A DNA stretch of 64,000 nucleotides from Eledone cirrhosa (Eukaryota). The notes under the pieces were generated by a model. It did no database searches. It saw nothing but the letters and a program-made list of their open reading frames with translations, and was not told the origin of the DNA. Numbering within the stretch: the first letter of the stretch is position 1; each line of letters opens with the position of its first letter. The translations under genes were made by a program, and so were the position numbers. Of this stretch, positions 4,741 through 55,193 are shown piece after piece. The stretch spans positions 369,830,001 through 369,894,000 of the forward strand of contig OZ024741.1 in the NCBI GenBank assembly GCA_964016885.1, in the 5' to 3' direction.

Positions 4741-4779
<39 letters not shown>

Positions 4780-9256: not shown

Positions 9257-9281
<25 letters not shown>

Positions 9282-12829: not shown

Positions 12830-12995
12830 ACAGCGCTGCCGAGACCCAGGTGTAGATGGTTGGATAACACCCACGAGCTCGAGTGGTCACAGTTGATCCA
12901 ACCGGATCAGTTGAAAAGGGTTGCTTCTGACAGGACCCGCTGGAATGGGTGTTTGAGACTCTGCACTCACGACATTCTCAGGAATAAGTAGGCGA
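12830..12995 (+). mobile_element. Probable RTE-type LINE C-terminal remnant
   Basis: RPRCRWLD...LKRVASDRTRW resembles the RP..RW.D...A.DR..W motif at the end of RTE ORFs. Confidence 0.45.
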
Positions 12996-13019
12996 AGAAG
13001 GTGATCTATCAATCTATCT

Positions 13020-15472: not shown

Positions 15473-15749
15473 CTATCTATCTATCTATTTAACTATCTAT
15501 CTATCTATCTAAAGAAATCTATCTATCTATCTATCTTTCTGTCTGACGTGTGGAATATCGCCGGTAAGTTTTTTGTTAATTTCTATGCAAAAAACCGATC
15601 TAATTGTTTGAAAAAATACAACACTTTGTAGATTAACCCCCAAGCTGAATTGTCAGCTGGGTGGTAATCCCATTTTTCGCCCCTGTAGGGGCGAACATTT
15701 TATTTAAAAAAATTTGTTTTAAATAATCAAATTTTACAAAGTAAAAAAC

Positions 15750-17642
15750 TTGAGCAACACTAGAACGCTGGAGAACGTTAATAGAGAAAAGAGAGAGAAA
15801 GAGGCAGATATTAACGTTATATCTGCTTCTGTTGCTATGGACGTTGCCATAGATAAACTGTTACAAAAGAAAAAAAATATATCAACATTTGAAAATGTTA
15901 CAATTTCTACCGCCGAAGCGGAGAAAAATGACAATAACACACAGGAAAACACGGCAAAAAAACCCATTGACATACATACACATGAAAAAGACATCAACAA
16001 CTCTACAGATACATCTACACATAAAATTTCCAACAACGATAACATCATTATCAACAACAACATCACACAAAAAAAGAAAATGTCTTTCGCTGACACAGTC
16101 AACAAGAAACAAGATTTTATAAATCTTGATATCTCCAACGCAAGAGATATGCTCCAGCAAGGGAGAAAATTTGTAACTTTCGAAGAAAGAGGTGGGTTTA
16201 GAATTAACTCACCCCTTGAAATAAAGGAAGACACAAACCGCCGATCAGTCACTTTTAGGACTGTGTCAAATTCGTCAAGAAAACCGACATTTGTTAATCA
16301 GTCAGATATAGAAGATTCTTTCAAGGATATTCTAGCAAATGTCGATTTTCTCCAGCGAGGAAAACAGTACGGAAGTGTTTCCGTACTGTTTAAAAGCGAG
16401 ACACTCGCCCCCAAAAACTCTGTGACACCAATAGTGTCAAAAGCATACACCTTTTTCCCTACATACATGGGGAAAAGGACACAAAAAATAAAAATAAAAA
16501 ACATACCTCCAAGCATTAACATCTGGTGGATCTTGGCTGGCTTCGTAGAGCCAGAAACAGACATAATACTTTCGATACGAAAATCCATTCGACAAAGGTG
16601 GGCGGGCACCGATTTGGAGATTCTGTTGCAAATGAAACCGGAGAGAATCTCCAAAATACCCGAAAGAGTCGTTATTGATAATAACAACAAAATAAACATT
16701 TCGGTAGAAGGACGAAAATTTCACTGCTTTCGCTGTGGTAGCACATCTCACCTAAAAGCCTCTTGTCCACAAACACACAACAACAACATCATAAAAAAAA
16801 CGCTATTACCAACACCAACACCAAAACAACCACCACCACCACCACCACCACCACCACAAGTACAACGACAGACGAAACGAGCAACCACACCAAAACAAAC
16901 AGACACTCAACCAACAACAACAGAAAAAACAGAGACAACACCCCTGAAGAACACATCCCCACTCCATCCCACTCCATCAAACACTACCACAAACACACAT
17001 ACCGAAACACTACCACCACCACACAACATACCCTTACCCCACACACCTGACGATGATTATTCATCGACGGATGAAGCTGCTTCTCCTTCTTTAAGTGAAG
17101 AAGAGGGAGAACCGCGGAAATCCAAAATCTAAAAAAAGAGACACCACAAAACCCCCAAAACTCCAATCACCAACACCAACACACAACCACAGACACAAAC
17201 AACAACACAAACAACACCACAGTCAAACATCCCCCTATCAGCAAAACCAGCACCAACACCACCCCAAACACAAGCACCCACCATAAAAAGAAAACTCCCG
17301 GATGAACAACAAACTAAAACAATACAACAAAAACACAAACAACAATACGCATACATCAACACAAACAACAAGAGTTTGATGGAGGTCATCTCCCAAAACC
17401 CCAAGGTGGAGACGGAGGGCAAAACTTTCGTCAAGGCAGAATCGTCTCCACACCTTAAACTTATAAGGGTTTCTATGGAAACCTATAAAGACCTGAAAAT
17501 TAAATTTTCACAGGACGTGGGCAACCCCTGCCACAAACCCATCAACCGCGTCCTGTTGAAAGGTTTCCCCATCCCACCCAACACCCCATCCAGCACCCAA
17601 ATGGAGATTGAACAACCCGATCTCCAGGAAACGAAAAGGTAA
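15750..17642 (+). pseudogene. Tx1 ORF1 (gag-like, CCHC zinc knuckle), interrupted after 17132
   Basis: CFRCGSTSHLKASC fits CX2CX4HX4C and is followed by a Pro/Thr-rich tail. The C-terminal part (17376-17642) is homologous to the ORF1 end of copy C. Confidence 0.85.
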
Positions 17643-17683
17643 GTGCACCTTTCGTCCTTTTTCTCCAACTTTTCTTCACCAAC

Positions 17684-20600: not shown

Positions 20601-20720
20601 GGGTGGAGAGAGAGGCACTGCACCCCAGTAAATTTACTGAAAGGTGGGTGAATGAAGCGAAAATGGCCCGAGTGATTGGGCCTTCTCTGTTTATAAGCCT
20701 GTATGTTGAGGAAGAGAGCA
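17684..20720 (+). pseudogene. Tx1 ORF2 of copy B (APE endonuclease, RT, CCHC), disrupted
   Basis: APE motifs NVRGL, ITES, GDWN, LDRF, SDH; RT motifs RQGCPLS, YADD. An 11-bp tandem duplication (GAGTGGCGGAG, ~18783-18804) shifts the frame, and ~440 bp are deleted at ~18933 relative to copy A. Confidence 0.9.
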
Positions 20721-20938
20721 AAAGGAAGAAAGGAGCACTTGAACAACACGCTCCTCGATTTGAGGGTTGTTCTATCGACGAGGTATTAAACAACCCATTT
20801 GTGGCGCCACCCCCCCTATTGGGGATTTCGATTGTTGAAATTGTTTGTTTTTATATTTTTTACACGACTGTATGTAAAATCCCCGGCATGTCTTTGTATT
20901 GTCCCCTTTCTTGTTGCGCCCTTGTGGCTAATAAAGAA

Positions 20939-21010
<72 letters not shown>

Positions 21011-21011
<1 letters not shown>

Positions 21012-24000
21012 ACAATTTCCAAAACAATTTCCAAAACACCCGCACCGCAAACACAACCCGAAAATATACCCCTCCCCTCCAACGCGGAAGATGACCCTAG
21101 TTCGTCGTCAGACGAGGAGGAGCACTTCCACACAATCAAAAGAAAAAAAGAAAACACACCTCAGACACACAAATGAAAACAACCCCTCCCCAAAACATAA
21201 CACTGACACCAACACAAAAGAGCTCACAACAACAGCAAACAAAAAACACCACACAAAAACAAAAACATGCATACACATACATAAGCACAAGAAACAAAAA
21301 ACTGTTAAACATTGTGTACAACAACAATCTAATAAAAACACAAGGGCCTAACTTCACCCAGGCAGGGGATTTCCCCCACCTCAAAATGATTAAGGCCCCA
21401 CAGGACACCTATAAAACTTTAAAAAACAATTTTAAAGAGGACGTGGGTCCCCCCTGCGTCGGGCCCATTAACCGCGTCCTCCTAAAAAACTACCCCACCC
21501 CCTCCCCAAACACCCACACAACTCCAAGCTCCCCAACCACACAACACACTGATGCCCCTACACTTCCACAAACCACCACCCCACCCAACAACCCATCCCC
21601 TTCCCTAATGGAAATTGTGCAGCCCGATACCCGGGACGCAGAGAGGTAAGTGCCTTTTCTCTTCACCACCAACATGGCTATGCTAAGAGTAGGCTGTTTA
21701 AATGCGCGTGGCCTGGGCTCAACTTGGAAGCAAGCAATGCTTCTAAATGACCTCAGGTCACAACGTATAGATGTGATGGTTATTTGCGAGGCCCGGATCA
21801 GCAACGTGCGACAGCTGGTCCCCACCTTTGATGACTTTGAGATGCACGCATCTCTCTGTCAGCCCGGAGGTGGGGGTGGAGTTGTCGTTCTGCTGCAAAA
21901 ACATCTGGGTCTCGCAACACAGATGGTACATTTGGACCCGGAGGGTCGACTAGTGGTTCTGGACCTTGGCAGTGGTAAAGGCGGAGCGTTTAGGTTGGTA
22001 GCCGCCTACGGCCCTTTCGGGTCAATGCGGCCGGACTTCTTCCATCGTCTGGAGACTTTTCTAGGGACGTCCCGCTCCTTGCTATTAGTGGGGGACTGGA
22101 ATGGTATCCTAGATGCACGCTGGGACAACGTAGGGGCCTGCCCCGATAGAGAGGGGTGTAATAGCCTCAAAGGGTTAATCGGTCGATTTGACCTGGCCGA
22201 TAGATATCGACTAGATTTTCCGACTGCGCCAACCTGGACTTGGGCAAATCGTAGCAGATCATCTAGGTCGTACCTAAATAGGTTCTTAGTTAGAATTAAG
22301 GATAAGGACTTTTTAAGTTGTCCAAAAATGCGCATGGTTGGATATTCAGACCACAAATTAGTGACCTGCATGGTCAACCTTGACAGAACTCATAGACAGG
22401 GACCCGGTTACTGGAAGCTCAACTTGTCCTTACCGGCAAGTAAGGCTTACAGGAACCGGATTAGCACTTTAGTTAAGGAGCGGTTGACGGGCGCCATCGT
22501 CAACAGCAGGTGGTGGGGATCTCTCAAAAGAGAGATTAGAGTAGTCTCTATAGAATTTAGTAAGGAGTTAGCCTCAAATAGAAATAGGAAGGAAAGGGAG
22601 TTGGTAGATAGTGTAGAAGAGGCAATTAGAAGCGGCGACGTGGCCAGAGTGCTAGCGTCGAGAACGGCCCTGGGCCAGTTCTTCGACGCGAAACACGAAG
22701 GCTGCATCGTCCGAAGCAAAATACGTGCTCTGGGAAACGAGGGGACCAAAGCTGTTAGCTGGGCCCGCGTGACAGAAGCCAAAAGAGGGAGCAGATCCAC
22801 TATCCGGTCTTTGCGAGACCAGGATGGACGGGTGATTATTGAACCTAAGCAGATGTGCGAGGCTTTTCAAAAGCACTTTGCCGGATTGTTCGGAAGGGGC
22901 GGGGGGCCGGTTGGGGACGTGGACTTCGGTCCATACCTCGACGGCCTGCCGCGTCTCTCGGACAGGGAGGCGAAGTAATGCGAGGAGCCGATTTCAGCCG
23001 CTGAGATAGAGGACGTGCTGAGCCAATGCGGCAAACACAAATCCCCGGGTCTCGATGGTCTTCCATACGAACTATATCTAGCTATGCCGGACTTGTTCCC
23101 CGAACTCCTCGAGGCGGTCTACTGCAACTGGCAACAGAACGGGAGAATTCCCTGTGCTGTGACCAAGGGCGTAGTCACGCTAGTGAGGAAGGACGAGAAC
23201 AAGGGGGACGATATAAATAATTTCAGGCCCATAACTCTGCTAAATACAGAGTTACAGATTTTGGCCAAGGTGCTAGCAAAGAGGTTAGCGCTTGTCGTGG
23301 GAAACCTGGTGGGAGATGCGCAGACATGTGCTATCCCGTCCAGGTCCATCCACGACAACCTCCACCTCATGCGATACATCATAGAGAGGGTTGGGAACGA
23401 ACCCAGCTTTGGTGGGGGCCTGATCAACTTAGATCAATCTAAGGCATTCGATAGGGTCGACCATGGTTACCTGGATGCGGTGCTAGCGGCGGCAGGCTTC
23501 GGACCCGTTTTCAGGGGCTGGATCAATGCCATGCACAGCAGCCGCATCTGCTCTAGGGTCAAGGTGAACGGCTACCTCTCGGAGCCGTTCGAAATCGCGC
23601 GGTCCATCCGACAGGGGTGCCCTCTCTCCTCCCTTCTGTATGTAATGACTCTAGAGCCACTGCTGCGGAAGTTGGAGTTGTTGCAGGGCATCCCGTTGGA
23701 ACCGGGATTGCGGAAAGCGGTGTCAGCCTACGCCGATGACGTAACAGTAATGGTGTCGACGGCCTCGGAAATCAGGGCGATCGGCACCTTACTGGAGGAG
23801 TACGAAAGGTTTACAGGGGCTAAGCTGAACCGGGACAAGTCGATCGGTCTGCAACTCGGCACGTGGAGGGGAAGATCGATGCCCTCCGATGGCGTCGTCG
23901 GGCGCTGGACGGAAGGCCCGGTGAAGTTGCTCGGGGTCTGGTTCGGACCAGACCTCCAGGTGGAGAAGAACTGGGGTGAGGTGACGAACAGGGTGTTTGC

Positions 24001-25375
24001 ACTGACCCAGAAGTGGGCCGAGTGCAAACTGTCCCTGAAAGGACGGGCGGAGGTGGCGAACACTTATATAGCGTCCGTCATCTACTACCGCCTGACCGTT
24101 GTGCCTTGCCCAAGGGAAACGCTCGCCAAAATGGAGCGCGCACTCTTCCAATTCCTTTGGAAGAAGCGGGCTCCTATGGTGAGGAGATCCATCTGCTATC
24201 AACACCCTTCGAAAGGAGGGCTGGGGATGCCGTGGCTAATGATACGTAAACACGCATTAAGGCTACGGTACCTTCAGGTATTCCTCTCCGGTCAACCGGT
24301 GTGGGCCCCGTTTGTGAGGCGAGCCTTTCCCAGACTCGTCTCACTCACCGAGCTGCAATCCTGGGTCAAGCAAAGACCGAGAAAACTGGGCGCCTGGCAC
24401 ACCGAGTGTGCCCAGGCACTCACGGCTCTCTGGCAGGCGGACCCGGCTGTCAGTGGAGAATCCACCTCGTCATTCTATAGAGGGCTGGTGGTTAGCAGGT
24501 GCGACGACGCCCTCGGAGAAGCCCTAGGCATGGAGGAAGACGAACTGGCCAACCTGTTCGGTAGGACATTCAGCCCGGGACCCATGGATAACTTCCAGAG
24601 GTCCCTGGCCTGGCAATGCTACAGAAGGGCTCTGCCCGTTCGAGAAAGGCTCTACAGACACGGGATCCCGGGTAGGGACCCATCGAAAAAGATCTGTCCC
24701 AGATGCGTGTGCGACGAGGAAACCGTTGCACACGCATTGGTACACTGCTCGGGCATTGCCGATCTGTGGGGTTATGTCGAACAACAGCTGTCAAGGGCGG
24801 GACCAATCCGGTTGACCACCGAGTCTATTGTAACGATCAAGCCGCCTCCCCTCTTCAAAAACGAAGGAGAGGCGGTGTTTCTGTGCGTAATAGCCATGGC
24901 GAAAGAGGTTGTATGGTGGACGCGTCTGAAAGGACTGAGGTCAGACACCTTTCTCTCTGGCCAACAACTGGTCCGTTTCTTCCGATATCATTTCGGAAGA
25001 AGGATCAGGATGGAGAGAGAGGTGCTGCACCCCAGCCGTTTCTATGAAAGATGGGTGAAAGTGGCGAGAATGGCCCGTGTGAATGGGCCTTCACTCTACA
25101 TCAGACTATAGGTGAGGAAGATGAAAGACCAAGGGAGCACCCCTTCTCTGTGCTCCTGAGGAGAAGGGTTGCACACTTTTTTCGGGGGTGTGTGCGACCA
25201 CCCAAGGCGCGTCCTCTCTATTGAGGACTTTGTTATAAATTTTATTTTTTGTTATATTTTATTTTATTTTTATATATTGTTATTGCCTCCTCCTTATTGA
25301 GGACGCCTTGTTTTGTAAACTCACCCCATTGTACTTCTCCCACTTTTGATGCCCTGGTGGCAAATAAAAGAAACA
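21011..25375 (+). mobile_element. Tx1-clade LINE copy C (second subfamily, truncated within ORF1)
   Basis: Begins directly after (ATCT)n and contains the ORF1 tail, ORF2, 3' UTR and AATAAAAGAAAC, then (ATCT)n at 25377-25400. Confidence 0.92.
21673..25110 (+). pseudogene. Tx1 ORF2 of copy C, complete apart from one in-frame TAA at ~22977
   Basis: Track ORFs 21650-22978 and 23015-25111 are in the same frame. All APE, RT (YADD) and C-terminal CCHC motifs are present. Confidence 0.9.
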
Positions 25376-25400
25376 TATCTATCTATCTATCTATCTATCT

Positions 25401-26389
25401 AGTGGACGCCTGGCACACCGAGTGTGCCCAGGCACTCACGGCTCTCTGGCAGGCGGACCCGGCTGTCAGTGGAAAATCGTCATTCTATAGAGGGCTGGTG
25501 GTTAGCAGGTGCGACGACGCTCTCGGAGAAGCTCTAAGCATGGAGAAAGACGAACTGGCCAACCTGTTCGGTAGGACATTCAGCCCGGGACCCATGGATA
25601 ACTTCACAGGTCCCTGGCCTGGCAGTGCTACCGAGGGGCTCTGCCCGTTCGAGAAAGGCTCTACAGACACGGGCGCCCGGGTAGGGACTCCTCGAAAAAG
25701 ATCTGTCCCAGATGCGTGTGCGACGAGGAAACCGTGGCACACGCATTGGTACACTGCTCGGGCATTGCCGATCTGTGGGGCTATGTCGAACAACTGCTGT
25801 CAAGGGTGGGACCGATCCGGTTGACCACCGAGTCTATTGTAACGATCAAGCCGCCTCCCCTCTTCAAAAACGAAGGAGAGGCGGTGTTTCTGTGCGTAAT
25901 AGCCATGGCGAAAGAGGTTGTATGGTGGATGCGTCTGAAAGGACTGAGGTCAGACACCTTTCTCTCTGGCCAACAGCTGGTCCGTTTCTTCCGATATCAT
26001 TTCGGAAGAAGGATCATGGTGGAGAGAGAGGTGCTGCACCCCAGCCGTTTTTATGAAAGATGGGTGAAAGTGGTGAGAATGGCCCGTGTGAATGGGCCTT
26101 CACTCTACATCAGACTATAGGTGAGGAAGATGAAAGATCAAGGGAGCACCCCCTCTCTGTGCTCCTGAGGAGAAGGGTTGCACACTTTTTTCGGGTGTGT
26201 GTGCGACCCCCCAAGGCGCCTCCTCCCTATTGAGGATTTTGTTATTAAATTTATTTTTGTTATATTTTATATTTTATTTTTTATATATTGTTATTGCCTC
26301 CTCCTTAGTGAGGACGCCTTTTTATGTAAATTTCCCCCATTGTACTTGTCCCACTTTTTGATGCCCTGGTGGCAAATAAAAAGAAAGTT
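25401..26389 (+). mobile_element. Tx1 copy D (5'-truncated, C subfamily)
   Basis: Near-identical to ~24390-25375 and bounded by (ATCT)n on both sides. Confidence 0.92.
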
Positions 26390-26405
26390 ATCTATCTATC
26401 TATCT

Positions 26406-27098
26406 ATCTACAGGCACGGACGCCCCGGCATGGATCCTTCCAAGAGGACGTGTCCAAGATGCGCGCAGGACATTGAAACAGTCCTGCACGCAATTGTACA
26501 CTGCCCGGGCGCAACCGACCTGTGGAACTATGCAGAACAACTGCTGTCGCGTGTGGGACAAATCCAGTTGACTGCCGAGTCCATAGTAAGGATCAAACCG
26601 CCAGCTCTTTCAAAAACGAAAGAGAGGCGGTTTCCTCTGTACGGTGGCTATGGTGAAAGAAGTTATATGGTGGACGAGGTTGAGAGGACTGAGGACAGAT
26701 GCCTTTCTCTCCGGACAACAATTGATTCCCTTCTTTAAGTATCACTTTAGAAGGAGAATCAGGGTGGAGAGAGAGGCACTGCACCCCAGTAAATTTACTG
26801 AAAGGTGGGTGAATGAAGCGAAAATGGCCCGAGTGATTGGGCCTTCTCTGTTTATAAGCCAGTAGGTTGAGGAAGAGAGCAAAAGGAAGAAAGGAGAACT
26901 TGCACAACACGCTCCTGGAGTTGAGGGTTGTTCTATCGACGGGGTATTAAACAACCCATTTGTGGTGCTTCCCCCCTATTGGGGATTTCGATTGTTGTAA
27001 TTGTTTGTTTTTATATTTTTTACACGACTGTATGTAAAATCCCCGGCATGTCTTTGTATTGGCCCCTTTTCTTGTGCGCCCTTGTGGCTAATAAAGAA
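26406..27098 (+). mobile_element. Tx1 copy E (5'-truncated, B subfamily)
   Basis: Near-identical to ~20243-20938. The 5' junction shares ATCTA with the preceding (ATCT)n, and it ends in AATAAAGAA plus (ATCT)n. Confidence 0.92.
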
Positions 27099-28546: not shown

Positions 28547-28576
<30 letters not shown>

Positions 28577-29063
28577 ATACTTTGGGAGGGTCATGTTGCC
28601 AATAAGAAACACACGCACCAGTTGCTTTCACTTCAATTTATTATATATTTATAAATTTATAAATTTACAAACTTATAAATATCTGGTTGGTTGGTTGGTT
28701 CCACAACCAGATAGTTGTTTATAGTCATAGTCCTTTCGTCACACACTCTGTGACCTCTTCAGTGACTGGGGATTCCTTTCTTTGTTTCTGTGCCTTTCCT
28801 TTCTTCTATCCTACGCCATTTTGTTTCTGTGTGTGTGTTGTGTGCTCAGTTTGCGCATGCGCCACATCCGGGTGTCTGTGTGTGTTTGTGTTCATTTATC
28901 TATTTGTTTATTTATTTATTTATTTATTTATTGTTGGTTGGTTGTTTGCACAGAAGCACAATTTAGTATAGCTAAATCCGAACTTAGAAATATTATAGAA
29001 CAGTATAGCAAGAAGCATAATAGAATAGAGGCCCAGTAACTGGGAGAAGAATCTGCAAATGGC

Positions 29064-31200
29064 TTGCGTAAGCTCATGCAGCGCTCACGTAATGGAGAGA
29101 TAGCATGCTTTCCAACAGACAAGTCTGGCAGAATGTCGGTTGACAGCCTGCCAAACTACATCCAGGCAATGCAACCCCACATCACTAACACAAGAGAGGT
29201 AACACCACAGGAGCATAAGGATAGAGAAAAAACCCTCAATGCCCATATGGTGATGTGGACGAATATAATGCAGCCCAACAAAAGGACTGCCAACAACTTC
29301 CAGGCCTGGAACAATGACGTGCCAGCGTTGTATGGGCTTCGAAAAGACCATAACACGAGCTGGGACCCTGTCGCGGGACCACCAACACGGCCAGTCTGTG
29401 GGGCTAACATTGCTAGTAACTACAGACTGTCCTACTTCCTCTCCCTGATCATACGCCCCATCATTGAGATGTCCCCAGATGTGTGTGACAGCACGGAGGA
29501 CCTCCTCAGCAGAATCGGAGCGGGTAACCGATCTGGGGACCTAACAAACTGCATAATAGGCAGTATGGATGTTGTGTCCCTGTATCCATCTATTGACGTG
29601 GATTTTGCTGTGGAGAAATGCGTAGAAATGATCAGCGAGAGCAAGGTTGAGTTCCGTGGGATTGATACCAGTGAGCTGGGACTTCTACTTAAGCTTACCC
29701 ATAGTAATAGTTACCTAGACACTTATGACCTTAGCAACCTGTGCCCTACAAGACCAGCAAGAGGCAGACCACCTACCATTACCTCAATGGCCAAGAAAAC
29801 CCACACAGATAGATGGAACGGGTGGACCAGAGCCATACTGACACCCGAAAACCACGATGAACTGAAGAAAATGATTGCACATGCGGTAGGGGCCAGCATA
29901 AAATTAACCCTTAAGGAACATATGTTCAAATTTAATGGAAGAACATATGCCCAAGAGGAAGGAGCAGCCATTGGTGTTAGCATTGCAGGCGACATAGCTA
30001 ACTTATTCATGGTATGGTGGGACAGTAGACTTAAACAAAAACTTAATGAACAATTAGAAGACAGCTTAACCCTGATAATGTACTCCCGCTACGTAGATGA
30101 TATAAACATCGTAGTTAAGACACCCCCACTAAAGAATAGTCAGGAACTAGAGAAAAACACAATGGAAAGCATCCAGCAAATAGCAAACTCCATCCACCAG
30201 AGCATTAGAGTTACTATAGTCTACCCAAGTAGACACCCCAACCATCGATTACCTGTACTAGACACAGAGCTCTGGTTAGATACCATTAACAACCAAAAAC
30301 AAATCCTCCATTCCCATTATGCCAAACCCATGACTTCCAAACATCTGATCCACCGAAACTCGGCCATTTCGGACCATACCAAAATCAACATACTGATTGC
30401 GGATTTGGTACGGGTGATGAGAAATGTCTCCCGCATGTGCAACCCCGAAGAACTAGAGAGACGCATACAACACTTCATCCACCGTATGCAGTTCTCTGGC
30501 TACAATCAGAGAGATAGAATCAGAGTGTATAAAGGAGCCAGAACCAAATGGGAAAAAATGGTAAGTAATGACATAAATGGGACCTGCCCCTTGTATAGGA
30601 GCAAATTTTGGAATAGAATAGAAAGAACTAGGAACAAGGCCAATAGAATAAACTCATGGTATGATAGCAATAAATACCAGAGTGTAATGTTCATCAATAC
30701 AACCCCTAGAGGCGAACTAGCCTACAAATTTAGAAGGGCCCTAAATAAACATAATCTCAATATTAAGATAGTAGAAAGACCAGGTACCTCCGTAAAAACA
30801 CTTATTAGCAAGACATACCCGTTCCAAAGACCCTTATTATAGATAAGAAATGTATAACCTGTAAAATAAGCCCCCCATATTAACTGTAAAACTAGAAATG
30901 TAGTGTATAGCATAAGATGTACTGAAGGACAATGTAGAAACAAAAATATAGTATACATAGGTGAGACAGCTCGTAGTATAGGGGAACGAATATATGAACA
31001 CTGGCGAGACCTCCAAGATAATAAAGAATCATCTGTGCTCTACCAACATGCTAAATAGAACACAGGGTTAGATTAGAGAGCATAGAAATAAAAATAGAAT
31101 CCACACACAGAAAAGACGCAATGTTTAGGCAAATTACAGAGGCAGTAAGCATAAAAGAATTAAAACCAAAATTAAATAGAAAATATGAGTGGAACAGCAA
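29064..31200 (+). pseudogene. Penelope RT (open 29064-30842) plus disrupted GIY-YIG endonuclease
   Basis: RT motifs TDKSG, GSMDVVSLYPSI, QEEGAAIG, YSRYVDDI, LPVLD. Downstream reads NCKTRNVVYSIRC...VYIGETARSIGERIYEH and RQITEAVSI..LKPKLN, with stops in between. Confidence 0.9.
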
Positions 31201-31520
31201 CATCACAACTTACAATTAAGGACAAAATGAAAACACACACAGGACAAAATGAAAACACACACACACATAGAACAAACAACTTACAATTAAGGACAAAATG
31301 AAAACACACACAGGACAAAATGAAAACACACACACACATAGAACAAACAACCAACCAACAATAAATAAATAAATAAATAAACAAATAGATAAATGAACAC
31401 AAACACACACAGACACCCGGATGTGGCGCATGCGCAAACTGAGCACACAACACACACACAGAAACAAAATGGCGTAGGATAGAAGAAAGGAAAGGCACAG
31501 AAACAAAGAAAGGAATCCCC

Positions 31521-31565
31521 AGTCACTGAAGAGGTCACAGAGTGTGTGACGAAAGGACTATGACT
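31521..31565 (+). ncRNA. Minimal hammerhead ribozyme in the Penelope pLTR (inverted twin at 28723-28767, minus strand)
   Basis: AGTCA-CTGAAGA-G-GTCAC(agagtgt)GTGAC-GAAA-GGAC-TA-TGACT, with a perfect stem I and stem II. Confidence 0.8.
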
Positions 31566-31773
31566 ATAAACAACTATCTGGTTGTGGAACCAACCAACCA
31601 ACCAGAAATTTATGAGTTTGTAAATTTATAAATTTATAAATATATAATAAATTGAAGTGAAAGCAACTGGTGCGTGTGTTTCTTATTGGCAACATGACCC
31701 TCCCAAAGTATAACAATATCGGTTTCAACACACGATTTCAGATAAAGAATCTTGCTAAACAAATTCAGAAACG

Positions 31774-31811
<38 letters not shown>

Positions 31812-31812
<1 letters not shown>

Positions 31813-32194
31813 AAGTTTTATTTAAATTGTTGGGTTACAACGAGTAAATATTTATAACTGATATAAAAGCACTCAACATGAATTTCTTCTCTCTATCTAT
31901 CTCTCTATATCTATCTCTCTCGGTTTTTCGTTGCATGCATTTCTTCTGTTTCTTCGTTTTCTTTCTTTCTTTCTTTTCTTTTTCTCTATAACTGTCCCTA
32001 ACATTTTTCACTACCAAATCAACTTTTTAAATGGAAGTTGAAGTGTAAGGTATGTCAAATCTATCTATTTATAAGACTGTTTATATTGTATTTTGTCTGA
32101 TGAAGGCATACCATATTTTTAATATGATATCCATGAAATATATATAATGAAATAAATATGGTTTTATAAATATGGTTTCCATTTATTTAATATC

Positions 32195-32200
<6 letters not shown>
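31812..32200 (+). mobile_element. Penelope-type 3'-end remnant with hammerhead motif; unedited paralogue of the 39.5-39.9 kb hairpin
   Basis: CTGATGA...GAAA-TATATA-TA at ~32097-32146. 31812-31878 matches 39497-39563 and ~32048-32198 aligns with ~39804-39955. Confidence 0.75.
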
Positions 32201-32257
<57 letters not shown>

Positions 32258-32614: not shown

Positions 32615-32652
32615 ACTATATATATATATATAAATATATGTATGCATGTATG

Positions 32653-33260
32653 TCAGGTCACCAGTTGGTGCTATGGTATCATGTATTTCAGTACAACCTG
32701 TCCCATGGTCGGGTCGTTGGCGACTTAACTGGCAACCCCACGAAGGTTTCTTGGTGAGGAGGGTGACTTTGGACATCCTGCAGGACTAAACACAAAACCT
32801 GTCAAAGGGCAAAGGAGCTCTTAAGAGTCAAAGGCCATCCAAAATCACCGGGAGGGATGACCCCTTAAGCCTTTGTCAAGGCAGAATTCTAGGAGAAGGA
32901 AAACTCTGATATAACACCTGCAACCCTGATGGTATCCAATGATGTTGACTTGTTGTTCTTTTTGGTAAATATCATCTTGGTTAAGAGAGTGGGACTGGCT
33001 TTGTGCAGTGCCTTTGCTCACTATAAAAGATTCACGGCACAGGCATTGCTTTATATCTGGAGATCTCTCTGCACTTGTTGTCACATGGTACCATGGGCCC
33101 AGCACTGTATCAATAATTGTCACAGGTGTAGTGTTTGTACCAGAGTTTTCAAGTCGCTGGCTGGACTAAAAAGCCACACTCGTTCAACGCATCGGTAGGG
33201 GTTCTCCTACATGGATATAAAGTTGTGGCCGTACTCGAAAACGAGTTGGCAGCCACCATG
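32653..33260 (+). mobile_element. Non-autonomous RTE-derived element, copy 1
   Basis: RTE 5'-UTR-like blocks plus a terminal zinc-finger remnant (CSVCTRVFKSLAGLKSHTRSTH) and the end CTCGAAAACGAG...GCAGCCACCATG. Confidence 0.85.
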
Positions 33261-33326
33261 TATATATATATATATATATATATATTGGCACACATATACA
33301 CTAAGTAAACGCATTTGTTTGACAGT

Positions 33327-33880
33327 CTCATGCTCAGGTCGTTGGCGACTAAACTGGCAACCCCACCAAGGTTTCTTGGTGAGGAGGGTGACTTTGGACA
33401 TCCTGCAGGACTAAAATCAAAACCTGTCAAAGGGCAAAGGAGCTCTTAAGAGTCAATGGCCATCCAAAATCACCGGGAGAGATGACCCCTTAGCCTTTGT
33501 CAGAATTCTAGGAGAAGGAAAACTCTGATATAACACCTGCAACTCTGATGTTATCCAATGATGTTGACTTGTTCTTCTTTTTGGTAAATATCATCTTGGT
33601 TAAGAGAGTTGGACTGGCTTTGTGCAGTGCCTTTGCTCGCTATAAAAGCTTCACGGCACAGCATTGCTTTATATCTGGAGATCTCTCTGCACTTGTCGTC
33701 ACATGGTACCATGGGCCCAGCACTATGTGTCAATAATTGTCACAGATGTAGTGTTTGTACCAGAGTTTTCAAGTCGCTGGCTGGACTAAAAAGTCACACT
33801 CGTTCAGCGCATTGGTAGGGGTTCTCCTACATGGATATAAAGTTGTGGCCGTACTCGAAAACGAGTTGGCAGCCACCATG
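33327..33880 (+). mobile_element. Non-autonomous RTE-derived element, copy 2, with (TATG)n tail to 34008
   Basis: Near-identical to copy 1. Confidence 0.85.
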
Positions 33881-34707
33881 TATGTATGTATGTATGTATG
33901 TATGTATGTATGTATGTATGTATGTATGTATGTATGTATGTGTGTATGTGTGTATGTATGTATGTATGTATGTATGTATGTATGTATGTATGTATGTATG
34001 TATGTATGAGGGAGCTTATAGATAGGACAACACACGCTGTCTCTTCGTGGGGTAAGTTTTTAATTAATTTTTGTATTCTGAAACATCAAAATACAACAAT
34101 TTGTTGGTTACTGGACTCGGGAATGTCACGACAGAAGTTTGTGGAAGTTACACAAATATTTTAGTATATTTTAGCAGAGCAATCCTTATTTATATTTTAC
34201 ATTTACTTACATCTCAATATAACATGGCTAGAATTCAAATTTTGCTAAGAGAAGAAAACGGTCAAATGAACTAGATACATCTCACTGTCCACACCACCAC
34301 AATAACGTCTACACTCTCTCCCCACCATCACATGTCATTACCATACCATACCCTATCGAGACTAAAGTCATCGACCTGTTGTCAAACTCTCTACTCTCTG
34401 ATGAATGTATATATATATATGTGTGTGTATGTATATGTGTGTATATACATCACTCAGTCAAACAACCAGATTTCAACCCCAACATCTACAACAACAACAA
34501 CACCGGCACTAATGTTTACAGCAACAACAGCTTCAGAATGAACTGAAATGAACATTTACAACAATTACAGCAACAACAACAACAGCGGCATCAAAACATA
34601 AAAAAAGGAAGGGAAAAGAAAAAAGAAAAGGGAAGGGGAAAAAAAAAAAAAAAAAAAAAAAAAGGAGAAAAAAAAGAAAGGAAAAAAAAAAAAAAACTCA
34701 AAATAAC

Positions 34708-34754
<47 letters not shown>

Positions 34755-35191
34755 CAGAACAACAACATCAACTGCCACCACCACCACCACCGCCACCGCC
34801 GTCGCCATCACCATCACCAGCGACCTTAAGAACAACTTTAATAATAATTTTTCTGCTTTTGGCACGGATCCAGCGACTGGCCAGCGCATCACTGGTACTC
34901 TCTTTTGTTGACTCCGTGGAGAGCCATAACTCTATGCTGTAAAGCAATTATAGTAATACTGGACTGTAATACGATCGGCTTCAACTATACAAACTCTTGA
35001 AAGTCAACAGTTGACATAATCTGGTAATCTTGTATCAGTAATGACGGTAATATATATATATATATATGTGTGTGTGTGCGTGTAAGTGAGTAGAGTAGCG
35101 TGTGTGTGTGTTTGTTGTGTGTGTGAGTGTTGCTGTGTGCACGCATATGTATGCGTGTGTGTGTATGTCGTACGTATAAGTGTCAATAAGT

Positions 35192-35231
<40 letters not shown>

Positions 35232-35530
35232 GCGGGGACATAGAAATAATCGGGCTGGATGCCCGATCGCGCAGTTAAACCACTGGGAGTGAAGAACCCC
35301 TAGCCCATGTCAGGGTATTCTTCTAGGAGAAGGCATCTCAGGAAACTGGGTTAACTCCGATATAAAACCTGCGGCTCAGTAGTTACCGATGATGTTGATC
35401 TTTTCTTCTTTTCGGGTTATAGCTACTGTCGCTCAGAGAGTGGGATTGGTTCAGTGCACAGTCTTTCCTCACTTTAAAAATATTCGTCACGCACAGGCAT
35501 TGCACGAGTGCATTAATAATTATTAATAGT

Positions 35531-35576
<46 letters not shown>

Positions 35577-35581
35577 TATTA

Positions 35582-35613
<32 letters not shown>

Positions 35614-35622
35614 CCCAATTCA

Positions 35623-38600
35623 ATGATGTTCCAGAACAATGTAAACGAGATAATTGCCAATTTGGGTTCTGGAACAAAAAAGATCATTGGCAATAAGGGC
35701 AGGGGCCCCAAGTTATCACAACCTGGGCCCGCCCGTCATCGTGCCATTGTAATAGAGCCAAACAGGGCATTTAGTCTTGGCTGCTGGAACGTACGGACGC
35801 TGCTTGACAGGGATTCTTTGGAGCGTCCTGAACGAAGGACCGCTCTTGTTGCGAAGGAGCTTCGACGTTACGATCTTGACATCGTGGCTTTGTCTGAGAC
35901 GAGGTTAGCTGGAGATGGTCATCTTACGGAATTTTGTGGAGAATATACATTCTTCTGGAAAGGAAGAGATGAAGGAACCAGAAGAGAGGCTGGGGTAGGA
36001 TTTGCTGTTAAGACTGTACTGGTGAATAAATTAGAAGAATTCCCAGTGGGGATTAGTGAGCGTCTTATGTCCATGAGAGTTCCGCTGGACAAGGGAAGAT
36101 ATGCTACCCTGGTGAGTGTGTATGCTCCAACTATGAATTCTGTCGATGAAGAAAAACTGTCCTTTTACCATGCCTTGAAAGGTGTTTTAAGAAATATCCC
36201 TCAGGCAGACAAAGTCATCGTGCTTGGTGACTTTAATGCTAGAGTGGGTAGGGATTTTAACACATGGAATGTAATCGGAAGGCATGGGGTGGGAAAGTGT
36301 AACAGCAATGGTATGCTCTTGCTGCAGATGTGTGAGGAGCTGGATCTGTGTGTTACCAACACCATGTTCCAACAAAAGAACAAATTCAAGACCACATGGA
36401 TGCATCCTGCATCTAGGGAATGGCATCTTTTGGACTACGTCCTAGTCAGGATGCGTGACAGACAGGATGTGCGGTGTGTTCGTGTTCTTCGTGGAGCTGA
36501 GTGCTGGACGGACCACCGCCTGGTACGCGCAAAAGTGAATCTAATCACCAAACGTAAAATCCGGGCTCCTGGTGTTACCCTGCCCAAAAGATTGAATGCT
36601 GCTCGTCTTAAGGATAAAAATGTGAAGAGGACATTGGAAGAAGAGATGCAGGCTGCAGATCTTGGTGAGGATTGGCCGACCCTTAAAAAGTCGGTTTATG
36701 ATGTAGGCAGACGTGTTCTGGGATTGGTGCAGAGAAAACATCAGGACTGGTTTAATGAGAAAGATGTGCATATAGATGACTTGTTGGCTGATAAGAGGCG
36801 CGCTCTGTCACGCTACTTGACGGCAAGACCACAGGAGAGGAATACGTTGCATGAGGAGCTCAGGGATGTAAAATCACGTGTTAGGCGGAGTCTTTCTCAG
36901 ATGAAGGATCAGTGGTGGAGTGAGAAGGCTGGTGAGATACAAACTGCGTCTGATTGCAATAACACAAAGCTGTTGTACAGTCTCTTGCGTGAGGTTTATG
37001 GACCGTCTTCTTCTCTGGTGACACCGATTCGCAGCAGGGATGGCAAAGAACTTCTTCGTGACTCACAGGGAATTCTACGAAGGTGGCGAGAGCACTTTGA
37101 TGATCTTTTGAATCAGCCGTCTGTCGTCAGTGAAGATTTCCTCAATCTCGTTCCGGAAAGTCCTGTGAAAGTAGCTCTCGCAGAGCCTCCGACACTTGTG
37201 GAGGTTGCAGTGGCTATTTCGAAGCTGAACAGTGGAAGATCTCCAGGTATGGATGGCATACATGCTGAGCTCCTACAATATGGTGGTGAGAGACTCCTGC
37301 AACATCTTCACTCTCTGTTTGGAAGGATATGGGCTAATGAATCCGTGCCTGAGGACTGGAGAGATGCAGTAATGGTGGTCTTGTACAAGGGAAAGGGTAA
37401 CAGGAATGATTGTGGGAACTACAGAGGTATATCATTGCTTTCTGTCGTGGGGAAAGTTTTATGTAGGGTGCTTCTGGACCGTCTGCTGACACACATTGCA
37501 GATTGTGTCCTTCCTGAAAGTCAATCTGGTTTTCGTGTTGGACGCGGCACTACTGATATGATCTTCTCAGCTAGACAGCTCCAGGAGAAGTGCATTGAAC
37601 AGGGCTTGGATCTGTATCAGGTTTTTGTCGATCTGACAAAGGCTTTCGATACTGTCAACAGAGATGCATTATGGAAGGTTCTCCAGAAACTTGGTTGCCC
37701 TGATAAGTTCCTTGCTTTAGTTAGGTCTTTCCATGACGACATGAAGGCTTGGGTTAATGTCGGAGGTAACATGTCGGAGCCTATCTCAGTAAAAAATGGA
37801 GTGAAACAGGGGGATATTCCAGCACCGACCCTGTTTGCCATATACTTTGCAATGGTTTTCTGTATTGCATTCAGGAATTGCGAGCATGGTGTTTACATCC
37901 GATATCGAACCTCAGGCAGCATATTTAACATCAGGCGCTTTGCTGCGAAGACAAAAGTGTTTACATCAGTCATAAGAGACCTCTTGTATGCAGATGATTG
38001 CGATCTTGTAGCGCACACAGAGAGTGATATGCAGCACATTTTGAATGTATTTTCTGACGCTTGCACTGCCCTGGGTTTGACTGTCAGTCTCAAGAAAACC
38101 GTCGTCATGTACCAACCTGCACCTGGTAGGCAGTACACTGAACCAAACATCTATGTGTATGGCAAACGACTTGGAGTGGTTGATCAGTTTGTCTACCTGG
38201 GAAGCACTGTCAATCGATACGGCAACCTTGACAGTGAAATCTCACTTAGGATTAGGAAAGCAAGTGATGCTTTCGGAAAGCTAGAAAGGCGACTCTGGGG
38301 TCGGCGAGACATATGCAGGAGGACAAAGGTAAAGGTGTACAGGGCATGTGTACTCTCTTGTCTTCTTTATGCCTGCGAGACCTGGGTCACATATCGACGC
38401 CACCTTAAGCAATTGGAGCGTTTCCATCAGATGTGTCTCAGACGGATACATGGCGTTCACTGGAGGGACCACATCAGTGATGTCGAGATTTTGGAAAGCT
38501 CTATGTGTGACAGTATAGAAGCTCTTGTGCTTAAGCAGCGACTCCGTTGGAGTGGTCACCTTGCCAGGATGAAGGATTCTAGAATACCAAAACAACTCTT

Positions 38601-39168
38601 CTATGGAGAGTTGGTTAAAGGAAAACGACCGCCACATAAACCAAAAAAGAGGTATAAGGATTCCTTGAAGGCCTCTCTGAAAGACGCTAACATCTCTGCT
38701 GATACATGGGAAAATATTGCTGCTGATCGTAATAAATGGAGAAAGACTGTATATGAGGGAAAAGTTGCCTTTGAGGCATCTCGAATCGCACACGAGAAAG
38801 TAAAGCGGGACGTGAGGAAGGGTATTGCTGTTGCACTTCCAGACGGCGAGGGTCCTCCTATGTTTCTGACATGCAGCGTCTGTGCGAGACTCTGCCTAAG
38901 CAAAGCTGGACTCGAAAGTCATCTTCGCAGTCATAAAGTAAGACCAGTGGTTGACTACCAGGCTGCTGTTGGAGATGCTACTCATCATGCTTGCCAAACA
39001 TGTGGTAGAGAATGTAAATCAGCAGGAGGACTCAAGCGACATGCAAAAGTACACGAACTCCAACCACAGCCGACTATTCCCAGTAAATGTTTTGGTTGCC
39101 GACTCTGTGCAAGACATTTTGGATCATTGGCTGGGCTAAAAAGCCACATTCGATCGCAGCACTGTTAG
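35623..39168 (+). CDS. RTE LINE polyprotein: APE endonuclease, reverse transcriptase and three C-terminal C2H2 zinc fingers
   Basis: Uninterrupted 1181 aa with WNVRTL, LSETR, GDFNARVG, LDYV, TDH, SPGMDG, YRGISLL, FVDLTKAFD, GVKQG, LYADD, YLGS. Fingers CSVC..H..H, CQTC..H..H and CRLC..H...H. Start codon uncertain. Confidence 0.95.
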   Translation: MMFQNNVNEIIANLGSGTKKIIGNKGRGPKLSQPGPARHRAIVIEPNRAFSLGCWNVRTLLDRDSLERPERRTALVAKELRRYDLDIVALSETRLAGDGHLTEFCGEYTFFWKGRDEGTRREAGVGFAVKTVLVNKLEEFPVGISERLMSMRVPLDKGRYATLVSVYAPTMNSVDEEKLSFYHALKGVLRNIPQADKVIVLGDFNARVGRDFNTWNVIGRHGVGKCNSNGMLLLQMCEELDLCVTNTMFQQKNKFKTTWMHPASREWHLLDYVLVRMRDRQDVRCVRVLRGAECWTDHRLVRAKVNLITKRKIRAPGVTLPKRLNAARLKDKNVKRTLEEEMQAADLGEDWPTLKKSVYDVGRRVLGLVQRKHQDWFNEKDVHIDDLLADKRRALSRYLTARPQERNTLHEELRDVKSRVRRSLSQMKDQWWSEKAGEIQTASDCNNTKLLYSLLREVYGPSSSLVTPIRSRDGKELLRDSQGILRRWREHFDDLLNQPSVVSEDFLNLVPESPVKVALAEPPTLVEVAVAISKLNSGRSPGMDGIHAELLQYGGERLLQHLHSLFGRIWANESVPEDWRDAVMVVLYKGKGNRNDCGNYRGISLLSVVGKVLCRVLLDRLLTHIADCVLPESQSGFRVGRGTTDMIFSARQLQEKCIEQGLDLYQVFVDLTKAFDTVNRDALWKVLQKLGCPDKFLALVRSFHDDMKAWVNVGGNMSEPISVKNGVKQGDIPAPTLFAIYFAMVFCIAFRNCEHGVYIRYRTSGSIFNIRRFAAKTKVFTSVIRDLLYADDCDLVAHTESDMQHILNVFSDACTALGLTVSLKKTVVMYQPAPGRQYTEPNIYVYGKRLGVVDQFVYLGSTVNRYGNLDSEISLRIRKASDAFGKLERRLWGRRDICRRTKVKVYRACVLSCLLYACETWVTYRRHLKQLERFHQMCLRRIHGVHWRDHISDVEILESSMCDSIEALVLKQRLRWSGHLARMKDSRIPKQLFYGELVKGKRPPHKPKKRYKDSLKASLKDANISADTWENIAADRNKWRKTVYEGKVAFEASRIAHEKVKRDVRKGIAVALPDGEGPPMFLTCSVCARLCLSKAGLESHLRSHKVRPVVDYQAAVGDATHHACQTCGRECKSAGGLKRHAKVHELQPQPTIPSKCFGCRLCARHFGSLAGLKSHIRSQHC

Positions 39169-39176
39169 TTGCTATC

Positions 39177-39220
<44 letters not shown>

Positions 39221-39299
39221 GCTTATGTGCGTGCGTGTGTGTGTATATATATATGAATATGTATATTATTATTGTTGTTGTCGTTATTATTATTATTGC

Positions 39300-39336
<37 letters not shown>

Positions 39337-39456
39337 GTTATTAATGTATGTGTGTATATATGTGTGAGTGTATGTGTATGTATGTGTGTGTGTATATATG
39401 TATGTATGTGTATGTATGTGTGTGTGTATATGTATGTGTATATATATATATGTATA

Positions 39457-39490
<34 letters not shown>

Positions 39491-39580
39491 CATGTAAAGT
39501 TATATTTAAAATTGTTGGGTTACAACTAGTAAATATTTATAACTGATATAAAAGCACTCGACAAATACTTGGAGTATATT

Positions 39581-39955
39581 TACAATATTGAATGAATGGA
39601 AGGCTATATTTGTGGGGCCATATTTGTTTCATTGTATGTGTTTCGGGGATATCATATTAACGGTGTGCTGTGCCTTCATCAGACGAGATACAATGTGGGC
39701 GGTTTTATAGATGAATATATTCGACATACCGTGGTAGACATCGGCTTCATTTGAAGAGGTTCACTGCTAGAGTGAACCTCTTCAAATGAAGTTGGTGTTT
39801 GTTGCGGTGTGTCGAGTATGTTTATCTGTGAAACTGTTTATATTGTGTTTTGTCTGATGAAGGCATAGCATGTTGTTGATGTGGTGTCCCCGAGGTGTAT
39901 ATAATGAGGTAGGTATGGTTTTGTAGATATGGTTTTCCATTTATTTGGTATTGTA
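39581..39955 (+). other. 185-bp hairpin with only Watson-Crick and G.T pairs (A-to-G hypermutated Penelope-end fold-back)
   Basis: Arms 39581-39765 and 39771-39955 with loop GCTAG. Hand count: 129 WC, 56 G.T, 0 other mismatches, 0 indels. Confidence 0.93.
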
Positions 39956-40155
39956 TATATATATATATATATCTTTTTTTTTTTTTTTTTTTTTTTTTTT
40001 ATTTATTTATTTATTATTATTATTATTATTATTGTTATTATTGTTATTATTATTATTATTATTATTTTTTTTTTTTTTTTTTTTTTTTTATTGTGCAATG
40101 GCCATACTCGATAACGAGGGGGCAGCCATCATGTATGTATGTATGTATACACCTA

Positions 40156-53417: not shown

Positions 53418-54538
53418 TGACTAAAAACAAAACCTGTCAAAGAGCAAAGGAGCTCTTAAGAGTCAATGGCCATCCAAAATCACCGGGAGAGATGACCCCT
53501 TAGCCTTTGTCAAGGCAGAATTCTAGGAGAAGGAAAACTCTGATATAACACCTGCAACTCTGATGGTATCCAATGATGTTGACTTGTTCTTTTTGGTAAA
53601 TATCATCTTGGTTAAGAGAGTGGGACTGGCTTTGTGCAGTGCCTTTGCTCACTATAAAAGCTTCACGGCACAGGCATTGCTTTATATCTGGAGATCTCTC
53701 TGCACTTGTCGTCACATGGTACCATGGGCCCAGCACTATGTGTCAATAATTGTCACAAGTGTAGTGTTTGTACCAGAGTTTTCAAGTCGTTGGCTGGACT
53801 AAAAAGTCACACTCGTTCAGCGCATTGGTAAGGGTTCTCCTACATGGATATAAAGTAGTGGCCGTACTCGAAAACGAGTTGGCAGCCACCATGTATGTAT
53901 GTATGTATGTATGTATGTATGTATGTATGTATGTATGTATGTATGTATGTATGTATGTATGTATGTATGCCAGGTCGCTCTCGAGTGCTATTGGTAAATA
54001 TAACCTAGTACAACCTGTCTCATGGTCGTCGGTGACTAAACCGCCAACCCCACCAAGCTTGCTTGGTGATATTTGGACACTCTGTGGGATGAAATACAAG
54101 ACGCGGTGAAGGACAGAGGAACTCAACAGAGTCAAGGGCCATCCAAATAGTACTTTTCTTTTTCACCTGGGATTGAAAGTCCCCCAGTTGTTGTCACAAC
54201 ACCTTTCTAAGAGAGGGGAAACTCTGAAAAAATACCTGCAGCTTCGGAAGCATTCGATGATGTTGACCACTTCTCCTGTTACGGTAGTGTTTTTGATGCT
54301 CAGAGAGTGGGATTGGTCGAGTGGAAGGCCTTTACCCACTTAAAAAACCTCTAAAGCATAGTCATTGCTTGTTCAGGTTATGTTACAGGTTCGTGTGGCT
54401 GGCCGTAGCCTAAAAGTGCCCCATTTTCTGTAATCTGGCAAGCGATTGCAACGCCCTTAGCAGAGTTTGCAGCCATCATGTATGTATGTATGTATGTATG
54501 TATGTATGTATGTATGTATGTATGTATGTATGTATGTA

Positions 54539-54569
<31 letters not shown>

Positions 54570-55193
54570 ATCTATGTATGTATGTATGTATGTATGTATG
54601 TATGTATGTATGTATGTATGTATGTATGTATGTATGTATGTATGTATGTCGGGTCACTCTTGAGTACTACTGGTAACATGTAACGCAGTACAACTTGTCG
54701 TATGGTCGGGTCGTCAGCGACTAAACCGGCAACCCCACCAAGTTTACTTGGTGAGGAGGAGGATTTTCGACACCCTGCAGGACAAAAAACAGAACCTGAC
54801 AAAGGGCGGAAGAACTCATAAGAGTCAACGGCCATCCAAAAGTGTGTAAATATGTGCATACACATGTACCGCACGGTTAAACCACTGGGAGTGAAGGACC
54901 CCTAGCCTTTGTCAGGGCATTCTTCTAGGAGAAGGCAACTCAGGAAACTGGGATAACTCCGATATAAAACCTGCGGCTCAGTAGTTACCGATGATATTGA
55001 TCTTTTCTTCTTTTCGGTTTATAGCTTCTGTCCCTCAGTGAGTGGGATTGGCTCAGTGCACAGTCTTTCCTCACTTTAAAAAATATCTTCACGCACAGGC
55101 ATTGCACGATAGAATTAATTAATAATTCTTAATAATGGTGTATCATGCAATGGCCATACTCGATAACGAGGGGGCAGCCATCATCATGTATGT
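53418..55193 (+). mobile_element. Three tandem non-autonomous RTE-derived elements (53418-53893, 53970-54480, 54649-55193) separated by (TATG)n
   Basis: Homologous to 32653-33880 and to the RTE UTRs. Each ends GCAGCCA(C/T)CAT followed by (GTAT)n. Confidence 0.85.

Follow-up and report, generated by a model that had tools for sequence, protein, structure and literature searches.

A genomic hairpin with G.T-only mismatches in the 3' UTR of an Eledone cirrhosa LINE suggests RNA editing copied into DNA

A stretch of 64,000 nucleotides of the Eledone cirrhosa genome, referred to here as the window, contains a LINE whose 3' UTR carries a long hairpin in which 56 adenosines of an otherwise perfect palindrome are replaced by G, always on the same strand. 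It is very probable that RNA editing has here been copied into DNA by some route, and the reading that is favored, and considered probable, is that an ADAR-edited transcript of the carrier LINE was retrotransposed into germline DNA. A broader proposal can be advanced with moderate confidence, namely that ADAR editing of retroelement RNA acts as a heritable, context-specific germline mutagen, which would be the main source of divergence of the LINE, ratcheting A to G through successive source copies, and would occasionally yield hairpins that are multiplied by other retroelements.

Counted inward from the pair formed by 39581 with 39955, the stem consists of 185 pairs, 129 of them Watson-Crick and 56 G.T (30 GT and 26 TG), with no A.C pair, no other mismatch and no indel, closed by a loop of 5 nt (Table 1). 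The recount reproduces exactly the earlier hand count of this stem, and a control palindrome (8978-9256) again gives 5 G.T and 3 A.C. This control belongs (window 8975-9259, together with loci L149-L170) to an older high-copy family with variable centres and 2362 first-look candidates, possibly another Penelope-type end. For comparison, 60 clean hairpins (stem of at least 100 bp, at most 5% transversion mismatches) were collected from the window and the first 200 loci, mostly copies of two families fetched for the analysis. Apart from the window stem, the other 59 hold 40 G.T and 28 A.C over 10,754 bp, with a maximum of 5 G.T each; G.T-only stems elsewhere, which the original prediction had named as a point against itself, are absent from these 59, so that it stands on this count. 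The folding energy of the edited plus strand is -271 kcal/mol, against -132 for the minus strand.

Table 1. Coordinates of the hairpin, its carrier and related features in the window
Feature	Position	Strand	Remarks
Near full-length intact RTE-type LINE (carrier)	34010-40148	+	Homology with other copies back to 34075
Single ORF: AP endonuclease, reverse transcriptase, C-terminal C2H2 fingers	35623-39168	+	
Microsatellite 3' UTR, long-UTR type, ending in the (TA)n target site	39169-39489	+	
Unpaired tail (3' extension) of Pen-A	39490-39575	-	Consensus-identical, 0/34 As changed
Left arm, antisense reading of Pen-A 3' end	39581-39765	+	30/80 As are G
Loop, at a small natural stem-loop of Pen-A, a frequent inversion point	39766-39770	+	
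Right arm, sense reading of Pen-A 3' end	39771-39955	+	26/66 As are G
Minimal type I hammerhead-like layout in right arm, LINE sense, hand-drawn	39840-39916	+	GAAA core changed at 39894, 39895
Right (TA)n, T/ATT tract, LINE terminal motif (from 40093), short (TATG)n tail	39956-40148	+	
Older rearranged Pen-A paralogue, used to polarise changes in the original prediction	31808-32203	+	Not hyper-edited

The direction of the changes is given by paralogues from the same genome, where a first look gave 1445 candidates for 39490-39960; 40 of these were scored, and 30 loci were cut out. The majority consensus of 29 paralogues is a perfect palindrome across the stem, and the window copy departs from it at 56 positions, every one of them A>G on the plus strand (left arm 30, right arm 26). 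The changes had been predicted to be A-to-G in both arms, and the family consensus contradicts the C-to-T direction that had been named as the alternative. Within the stem 56 of 146 As are changed, compared with 0 of 34 in the adjoining unpaired tail (p=7e-7), which had rightly been described as nearly unchanged. Editing depends on the 5' neighbor (T 29/60, A 21/46, C 4/19, G 2/17), and the sparing of As after G, first noticed by eye, amounts to 2/17 edited versus 54/125 after other bases (p=0.016). Likewise, the 21 loop-proximal base pairs, also said to be spared, contain 13 As with none changed, where 4.1 would be expected from 5' context (P of about 0.005). ADAR favors a 3' G, a preference that does not show in the hairpin, where two of the ten As followed by G are edited. 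A 5' G is disfavored by ADAR according to the available text of PMC8586724, and over four independent editing events it is avoided strongly (5/107 versus 190/558, p=8e-12). Clustered A>G changes on one strand, one signature of ADAR, account for 56 of 56 differences in the window copy and number 48-54 in loci L210 and L211 and 37 in L222; confinement to the duplex, another signature, is found in the window stem, is doubtful for L210, and is lacking at the sites in the LINE ORF discussed below. The edited plus strand is the sense strand of the LINE, as had been claimed, and runs opposite to Pen-A's own sense, antisense to its ORF, as the model of a LINE carrier needs.

The stem is the palindromic end of a Penelope-like element, here called Pen-A, inserted in the (TA)n of the LINE 3' UTR. 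The 29 other Pen-A copies are near-identical and perfectly palindromic, and lie in (TA)n between unrelated flanks. In longer copies the sequence continues beyond tail and left arm into a minus-strand ORF of ~740 aa. Where the inversion occurs varies between copies, some having a loop of a few bases and others arms of up to 3.2 kb. An interpretation of the hairpin as a MITE was rejected because of these longer copies, which enter the reverse transcriptase ORF, and because of the variable inversion point. The family is abundant, with 6,885 arms matching a 32-letter degenerate pattern. Its protein matches no Pfam family and no solved structure up to E=1, so that the clade was read by eye: the predicted motifs resemble those of the Hydra clade of Penelope-like elements (Craig et al., PMC8557442). 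Points of agreement are DKT and CxCX5C motifs, an RWR motif in the place of the clade's RWK, and a GIY-YIG-type endonuclease at the C terminus; like members of that clade, Pen-A also targets (TA)n, leaves truncated copies in inverted arrangement, has its tail on one side only and contains a hammerhead-like motif. It differs in its length of ~4 kb and tail of 86 nt, against less than 3 kb and 30-40 nt. The window contains a third Penelope-like element (28569-31780) with inverted arms of 378 nt, a 600-aa RT-like ORF on the plus strand and a one-sided tail.

The hammerhead-like layout of the right arm has both core motifs and 26 of 26 standard pairs in an unedited copy; it is not the minimum-energy fold, and Rfam returned generic hairpin matches only, with no hammerhead match in the Pen-A end. 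Among 143 matches at the fetched loci the GAAA core is intact in 133 and reads GAGG in the other 10, which represent three events (window, L211 and L217), two of them unselected, because the pattern by which L217 was found demands one such G. At this editing rate, the core change is likely due to chance. An active ribozyme would cut off the 3' end of the LINE, an outcome that pairing in the long stem and editing would be expected to prevent.

LINEs of the RTE clade have one ORF with AP endonuclease and reverse transcriptase, and a short tandem-repeat tail. The carrier, which owes its label to the original prediction, shows these features as judged from its predicted domain content and its (TATG)n-type tails; the profile matches of its ORF over the cut-off are PF03372 and PF00078. 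Its 5' limit was placed at the end of a (TATG)n tract, and no target-site duplication is readable, because both flanks are (TATG)n. Compared with the family majority, the window ORF has three A>G changes (36416, 37150 and 37959), and its three G>A lie at sites where the older clade or the long-UTR copies also have A. This LINE is very young and active, with 40 of 40 scored matches identical over 481 bases. The hairpin is located, as predicted, between the stop codon of the ORF and the terminal motif, and its insertion site in the (TA)n of the LINE is established: among 47 LINE copies having the terminal motif, 16 have the long UTR with an empty (TA)n at the hairpin site. None of these 47 copies contains the hairpin, nor does any of 30 in an overlapping sample, and a junction-spanning search returned the window alone among 40 scored of 1301 candidates; these samples of possible parents and siblings were drawn almost wholly from contigs C1 and C2.

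Several other observations concern LINEs and repeats in these sequences. After the end of the ORF, L044 and L059 have a common foreign insertion in the (TAT)n of the LINE 3' UTR, a possible second case of a LINE with nested cargo, and in the LINE copies L113 and L138 the 5' segments are inverted, as twin priming would produce. Repeats of ~550-600 nt with the terminal motif and tail of the LINE (window 32640-34008, 53419-53968 and 54478-55105) are probably its non-autonomous partners. The window also contains at least three tandem same-strand L1/Tx1-like LINE copies with (TATC)n between them and repeated 3' fragments (12887-26740), and a degenerate trinucleotide repeat of ~2.5 kb with several frames open (2476-5212).

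The model proposed for the window copy starts with the palindromic insertion of Pen-A into the (TA)n of a long-UTR LINE copy, a step that can be seen in outline. A germline transcript of this LINE would then have folded its 185-bp perfect stem in RNA, and an ADAR would have deaminated ~38% of the adenosines in the stem to inosine, while leaving untouched the unpaired tail, the turn next to the loop and most As that follow a G. The LINE reverse transcriptase would have read inosine as G and inserted the window copy; as inosine is copied as G, each edited A.U pair now appears as a G.T mismatch between the arms. The same route would also account for a second edited hairpin, which another Penelope family (Pen-B, see below) spread to eight loci, and for the predominance of A>G in the divergence of the LINE copies themselves, where it would act at a low level. 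The original prediction that a LINE transcript was hyper-edited and then retrotransposed gains support from the sense strand of the edits and from the Pen-B parallel, while the several cycles it envisaged do not emerge for the window copy. We infer the exact route of this copy, because no parent or sibling LINE with the hairpin was found. The word 'fixed' in the original prediction is not supported; what is seen is the presence of the copy in the assembly.

Beyond the window, three more independent hyper-edited copies were found. A search pattern with one fixed G gave 11 matches, three of them hyper-edited (window, L210 and L211) and the remaining eight rejected as not hyper-edited, and a second pattern gave four, namely the window, L211, L217 and L218, the last an old unedited hairpin that was dropped. 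L211 has 50 G.T and 0 A.C, and the Pen-A tail forms the end of its edited strand. In L210, an inverted Pen-A insertion (L210:729-1636, G000:C320), one arm shows 54 A>G over 557 aligned bases, its partner arm is unedited, and the edits extend past the paired part. Hyper-edited hairpins are not confined to LINE 3' UTRs: for L210 and L211, both on contigs of ~120 kb, no carrier was seen in the ~10 kb to either side. Window and L211 have 19 of 24-26 edited sites of one arm in common (p=3e-6), with differing junctions and orientation; these are read here as shared hot sites. Neighboring hairpins on the contigs of edited events are unedited, and the frequency of hyper-editing is estimated at about one arm in a thousand (3 of 6,885 arms, with roughly half of the edited ones caught).

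L217 is a Pen-A hairpin nested in another Penelope-like family, Pen-B, within whose 3' region it lies; its edits are on the sense strand of Pen-B. The adjoining Pen-B segment has full-length matches at ten loci. The edited hairpin is present with the same edits at seven of nine further Pen-B loci and missing at two, and three more distant copies are without it in the 1.1 kb fetched. The hairpin carried by Pen-B is thereby found at eight loci, on five chromosome-scale contigs and two small ones, and the Pen-B insertion on contig C4 has it in both inverted arms. The six of nine rows that can be scored arm versus arm give 27-39 G.T and 1-2 A.C. The end of Pen-B was reached at three of four loci fetched further, and the flanks differ mutually and from those on C4. 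Common edits at independent insertions with differing flanks argue strongly against an artefact, and their occurrence on five chromosome-scale contigs is hard to produce by polishing or by a somatic event. Variable sites among the Pen-B siblings (11 A/G versus 1 C/T, p=0.006) hint at further editing rounds. Editing of the UTR after the Pen-B ORF in a subfamily was also considered and rejected, as all 12 copies have the same UTR and a deletion marks the subfamily. The loci of this nested case are L217, L220-L230 and L234-L237.

The LINE copies also diverge from each other mainly by A>G on the sense strand. The ORF was compared in the window and 51 copies (L098-L148; 47 rows complete), selected for identity in a segment of 481 bases at the end of the ORF or in one of 279 bases upstream of it, and the distinct sites differing from the majority are 87 A>G, 24 G>A, 14 C>T, 9 T>C and 41 transversions; among singletons, A>G (54) again exceeds T>C (9). 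Polarity is based on the singleton spectrum and on the long UTR present in both clades, rather than on an outgroup. The rate of A>G follows the 5' base (A.151, T.123, C.070, G.033; p=4e-6) and the 3' base (G.175, or 46/263, C.085, T.060, A.040; p=2e-7). Eleven copies form an older clade, whose consensus departs from the main one at seven sites; each of these reads A in the older consensus and G in the main consensus. Sixteen A>G sites occur in the two clades alike. The A/G sites define nested clades, in a tree of 47 copies that is poorly resolved (3 of 43 branches starred). There is no sign of selection on the multi-copy A>G sites, 11 of 12 sites with at least five copies being non-synonymous where 74% is expected. 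The Pen-A ORF, used as a control, shows 10 A>G and 11 T>C (45 arms at 37 loci; Fisher p=4e-5 versus the LINE), and this symmetry implies that the skew of the LINE is neither genome-wide nor common to all retroelements. The A>G sites of the LINE ORF show no clustering (19 close pairs versus 23 expected), and predicted pairing is no higher where they lie (p=0.08; for the multi-copy sites, 0.29), which leaves room for a biased reverse transcriptase; for the ORF signal taken by itself, such a DNA-level or polymerase process has a low but appreciable probability.

On 39490-39960, four of 24 listed sequencing runs were compared (X1, X3, X5 and X22). The contigs of X1 and X3, from one sample, have zero depth at 39602-39697, 39810-39825 and 39890-39960, holes that prove nothing, because contigs drop rare variants and the ~6,900 arms of the family swamp one copy. 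The lack of G-bearing contigs in these two runs is the chief reservation about the window copy itself. In X22, raw RAD reads have A at five edited sites listed, the reads being indistinguishable from those of thousands of paralogues. X5 reaches a depth of 107-164 at 39602-39633 and of 134-212 at 39906-39937, two segments where every unedited 31-mer differs from the window copy by 5-8 letters. None of these read data are counted for or against the model. None of the runs on record is an RNA run with this stretch, and no RNA from the window locus was seen. Adenosine-deaminase domains (PF02137) are encoded at at least three places in the genome; this family also covers ADAT and ADAD.

Some alternatives accept the editing and place its entry into DNA elsewhere. 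In retroprocessing, the hairpin would have inserted at the present locus, the transcript of this locus would have been edited, and its cDNA would have replaced the chromosomal copy by recombination. This would suit the lack of a parent or sibling LINE, and the editing of a single arm in L210, which a simple hairpin transcript does not explain, resembles a partial replacement or a template switch. However, the activity of the LINE makes ordinary retrotransposition likelier, the parent may be missing from a haploid assembly, and the Pen-B case is one of spread by insertion, so that retroprocessing is considered unlikely. It could also be argued that the edited hairpin RNA came from another transcript and was inserted into the (TA)n by the Pen-A machinery, the LINE being a bystander. 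Pen-A does target (TA)n, and for the edited hairpin L211 no carrier was seen within ~10 kb; but the edited strand ends in the tail in L211 and L217, as a Pen-A template should, whereas the edited strand of the window copy has the tail at its 5' end, and this explanation is regarded as decidedly improbable.

The remaining explanations dispense with inherited RNA editing. RNA-derived sequence in the assembly, or an assembled somatic insertion, could be suspected from the zero depth of the X1 and X3 contigs on the most edited bins and from the finding of two of the four events on contigs of ~120 kb. The depth argument is weakened by the swamping of one copy and the dropping of rare variants described above, and an artefact of this kind is made very improbable by the same Pen-B-borne edits at eight loci, by the nested clades that the LINE A/G sites form and by the unedited hairpins on the same contigs. 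Finally, the changes could stem from a DNA-level or polymerase process, such as strand-biased mutation, misincorporation by reverse transcriptase or deamination of the DNA strand in an RNA:DNA hybrid. The ORF sites, unrelated to predicted pairing or clustering, would agree with it, and so would L210, where the edited strand is the would-be first-strand cDNA. Such a process can hardly be credited for the hairpin, as it cannot give 56 of 146 As in the stem against 0 of 34 adjoining, on one strand and in both arms; moreover, the non-A/G changes of the ORF show no slippage pattern, the new base equaling the 3' neighbor in 17/61 and the 5' neighbor in 17/61. 

RNA editing is taken to leave the genome unchanged. 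If the proposal is true, editing would supply inherited mutations, at any rate to mobile DNA, which makes up a large share of such genomes, and edits could become fixed from any RNA that these reverse transcriptases copy, including the RNA of host retrocopies. Whether editing restricts or diversifies retrotransposons in heavy editors would become testable from assemblies alone, the genome would keep a fossil record of germline editing, and germline ADAR activity could be recognized in any genome simply by its G.T-only palindromes. Ages of LINE copies based on divergence would be inflated, because most differences would arise at the RNA step, and genomic G copies could be mistaken for editing in RNA-seq, and vice versa.

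Edited RNA is known to return to DNA in plant organelles, where retroprocessing concerns C-to-U edits of organellar genes and replaces the locus; the similarity ends there, as new insertions are seen here. The portions available of the papers cited next set the extent of the comparison with each. Knisbacher and Levanon (PMC4866542) described APOBEC-edited LTR retrotransposons fixed in vertebrate genomes, with G>A changes, using 19 invertebrate genomes as negative control and calling clustered changes other than G>A negligible. The two cases share clusters of one transition, a bias to the element sense, a sequence context and germline entry by reverse transcription and integration; they differ in that the APOBEC case is cytidine deamination of cDNA, whereas A>G, an RNA duplex, and non-LTR and Penelope-like elements are involved here. 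G>A DNA editing was likewise reported in the accessible part of PMC2873906, with an A>G excess only in RNA traces. The avian retroviruses RAV-1 and ALV undergo ADAR hyper-editing described as rare (cited in PMC8586724, in the text available), also with A>G clusters, 5' G avoidance and copying to DNA by reverse transcriptase, but they are exogenous viruses, while the elements studied here are endogenous, inherited and re-amplified. ADAR1 binds human LINE-1 RNA, and its restriction is editing-independent in the portion available of Orecchini et al. (PMC5224506), with no editing in more than 2.5 kb of RNA, whereas here A>G is the commonest difference between copies. In coleoids, Albertin et al. 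(PMC9068888) found, as far as the accessible text goes, repeat-directed A-to-I editing in 3' UTRs of all tissues and broadly transcribed ADARs, measured as RNA versus DNA and, in the squid, directed to repeats; that text describes no genomic imprint, whereas the imprint is read here in genomic DNA; active RTE elements have been described in octopus in the available part of 10.1101/2021.01.24.427974. Full-text searches, mostly of non-subscription papers, turned up no report of ADAR edits that had become fixed in genomic copies of non-LTR or Penelope-like elements, the available portions of PMC5974252 and PMC11167929 contain none, and the word 'editing' is absent from that of PMC13282606. Compared with the deaminase-edited retroelements already described in germlines, the present case stands apart in that the editing probably took place on RNA with ADAR-type chemistry, in that the elements are of the non-LTR and Penelope-like kinds, and in that edited copies were re-amplified.
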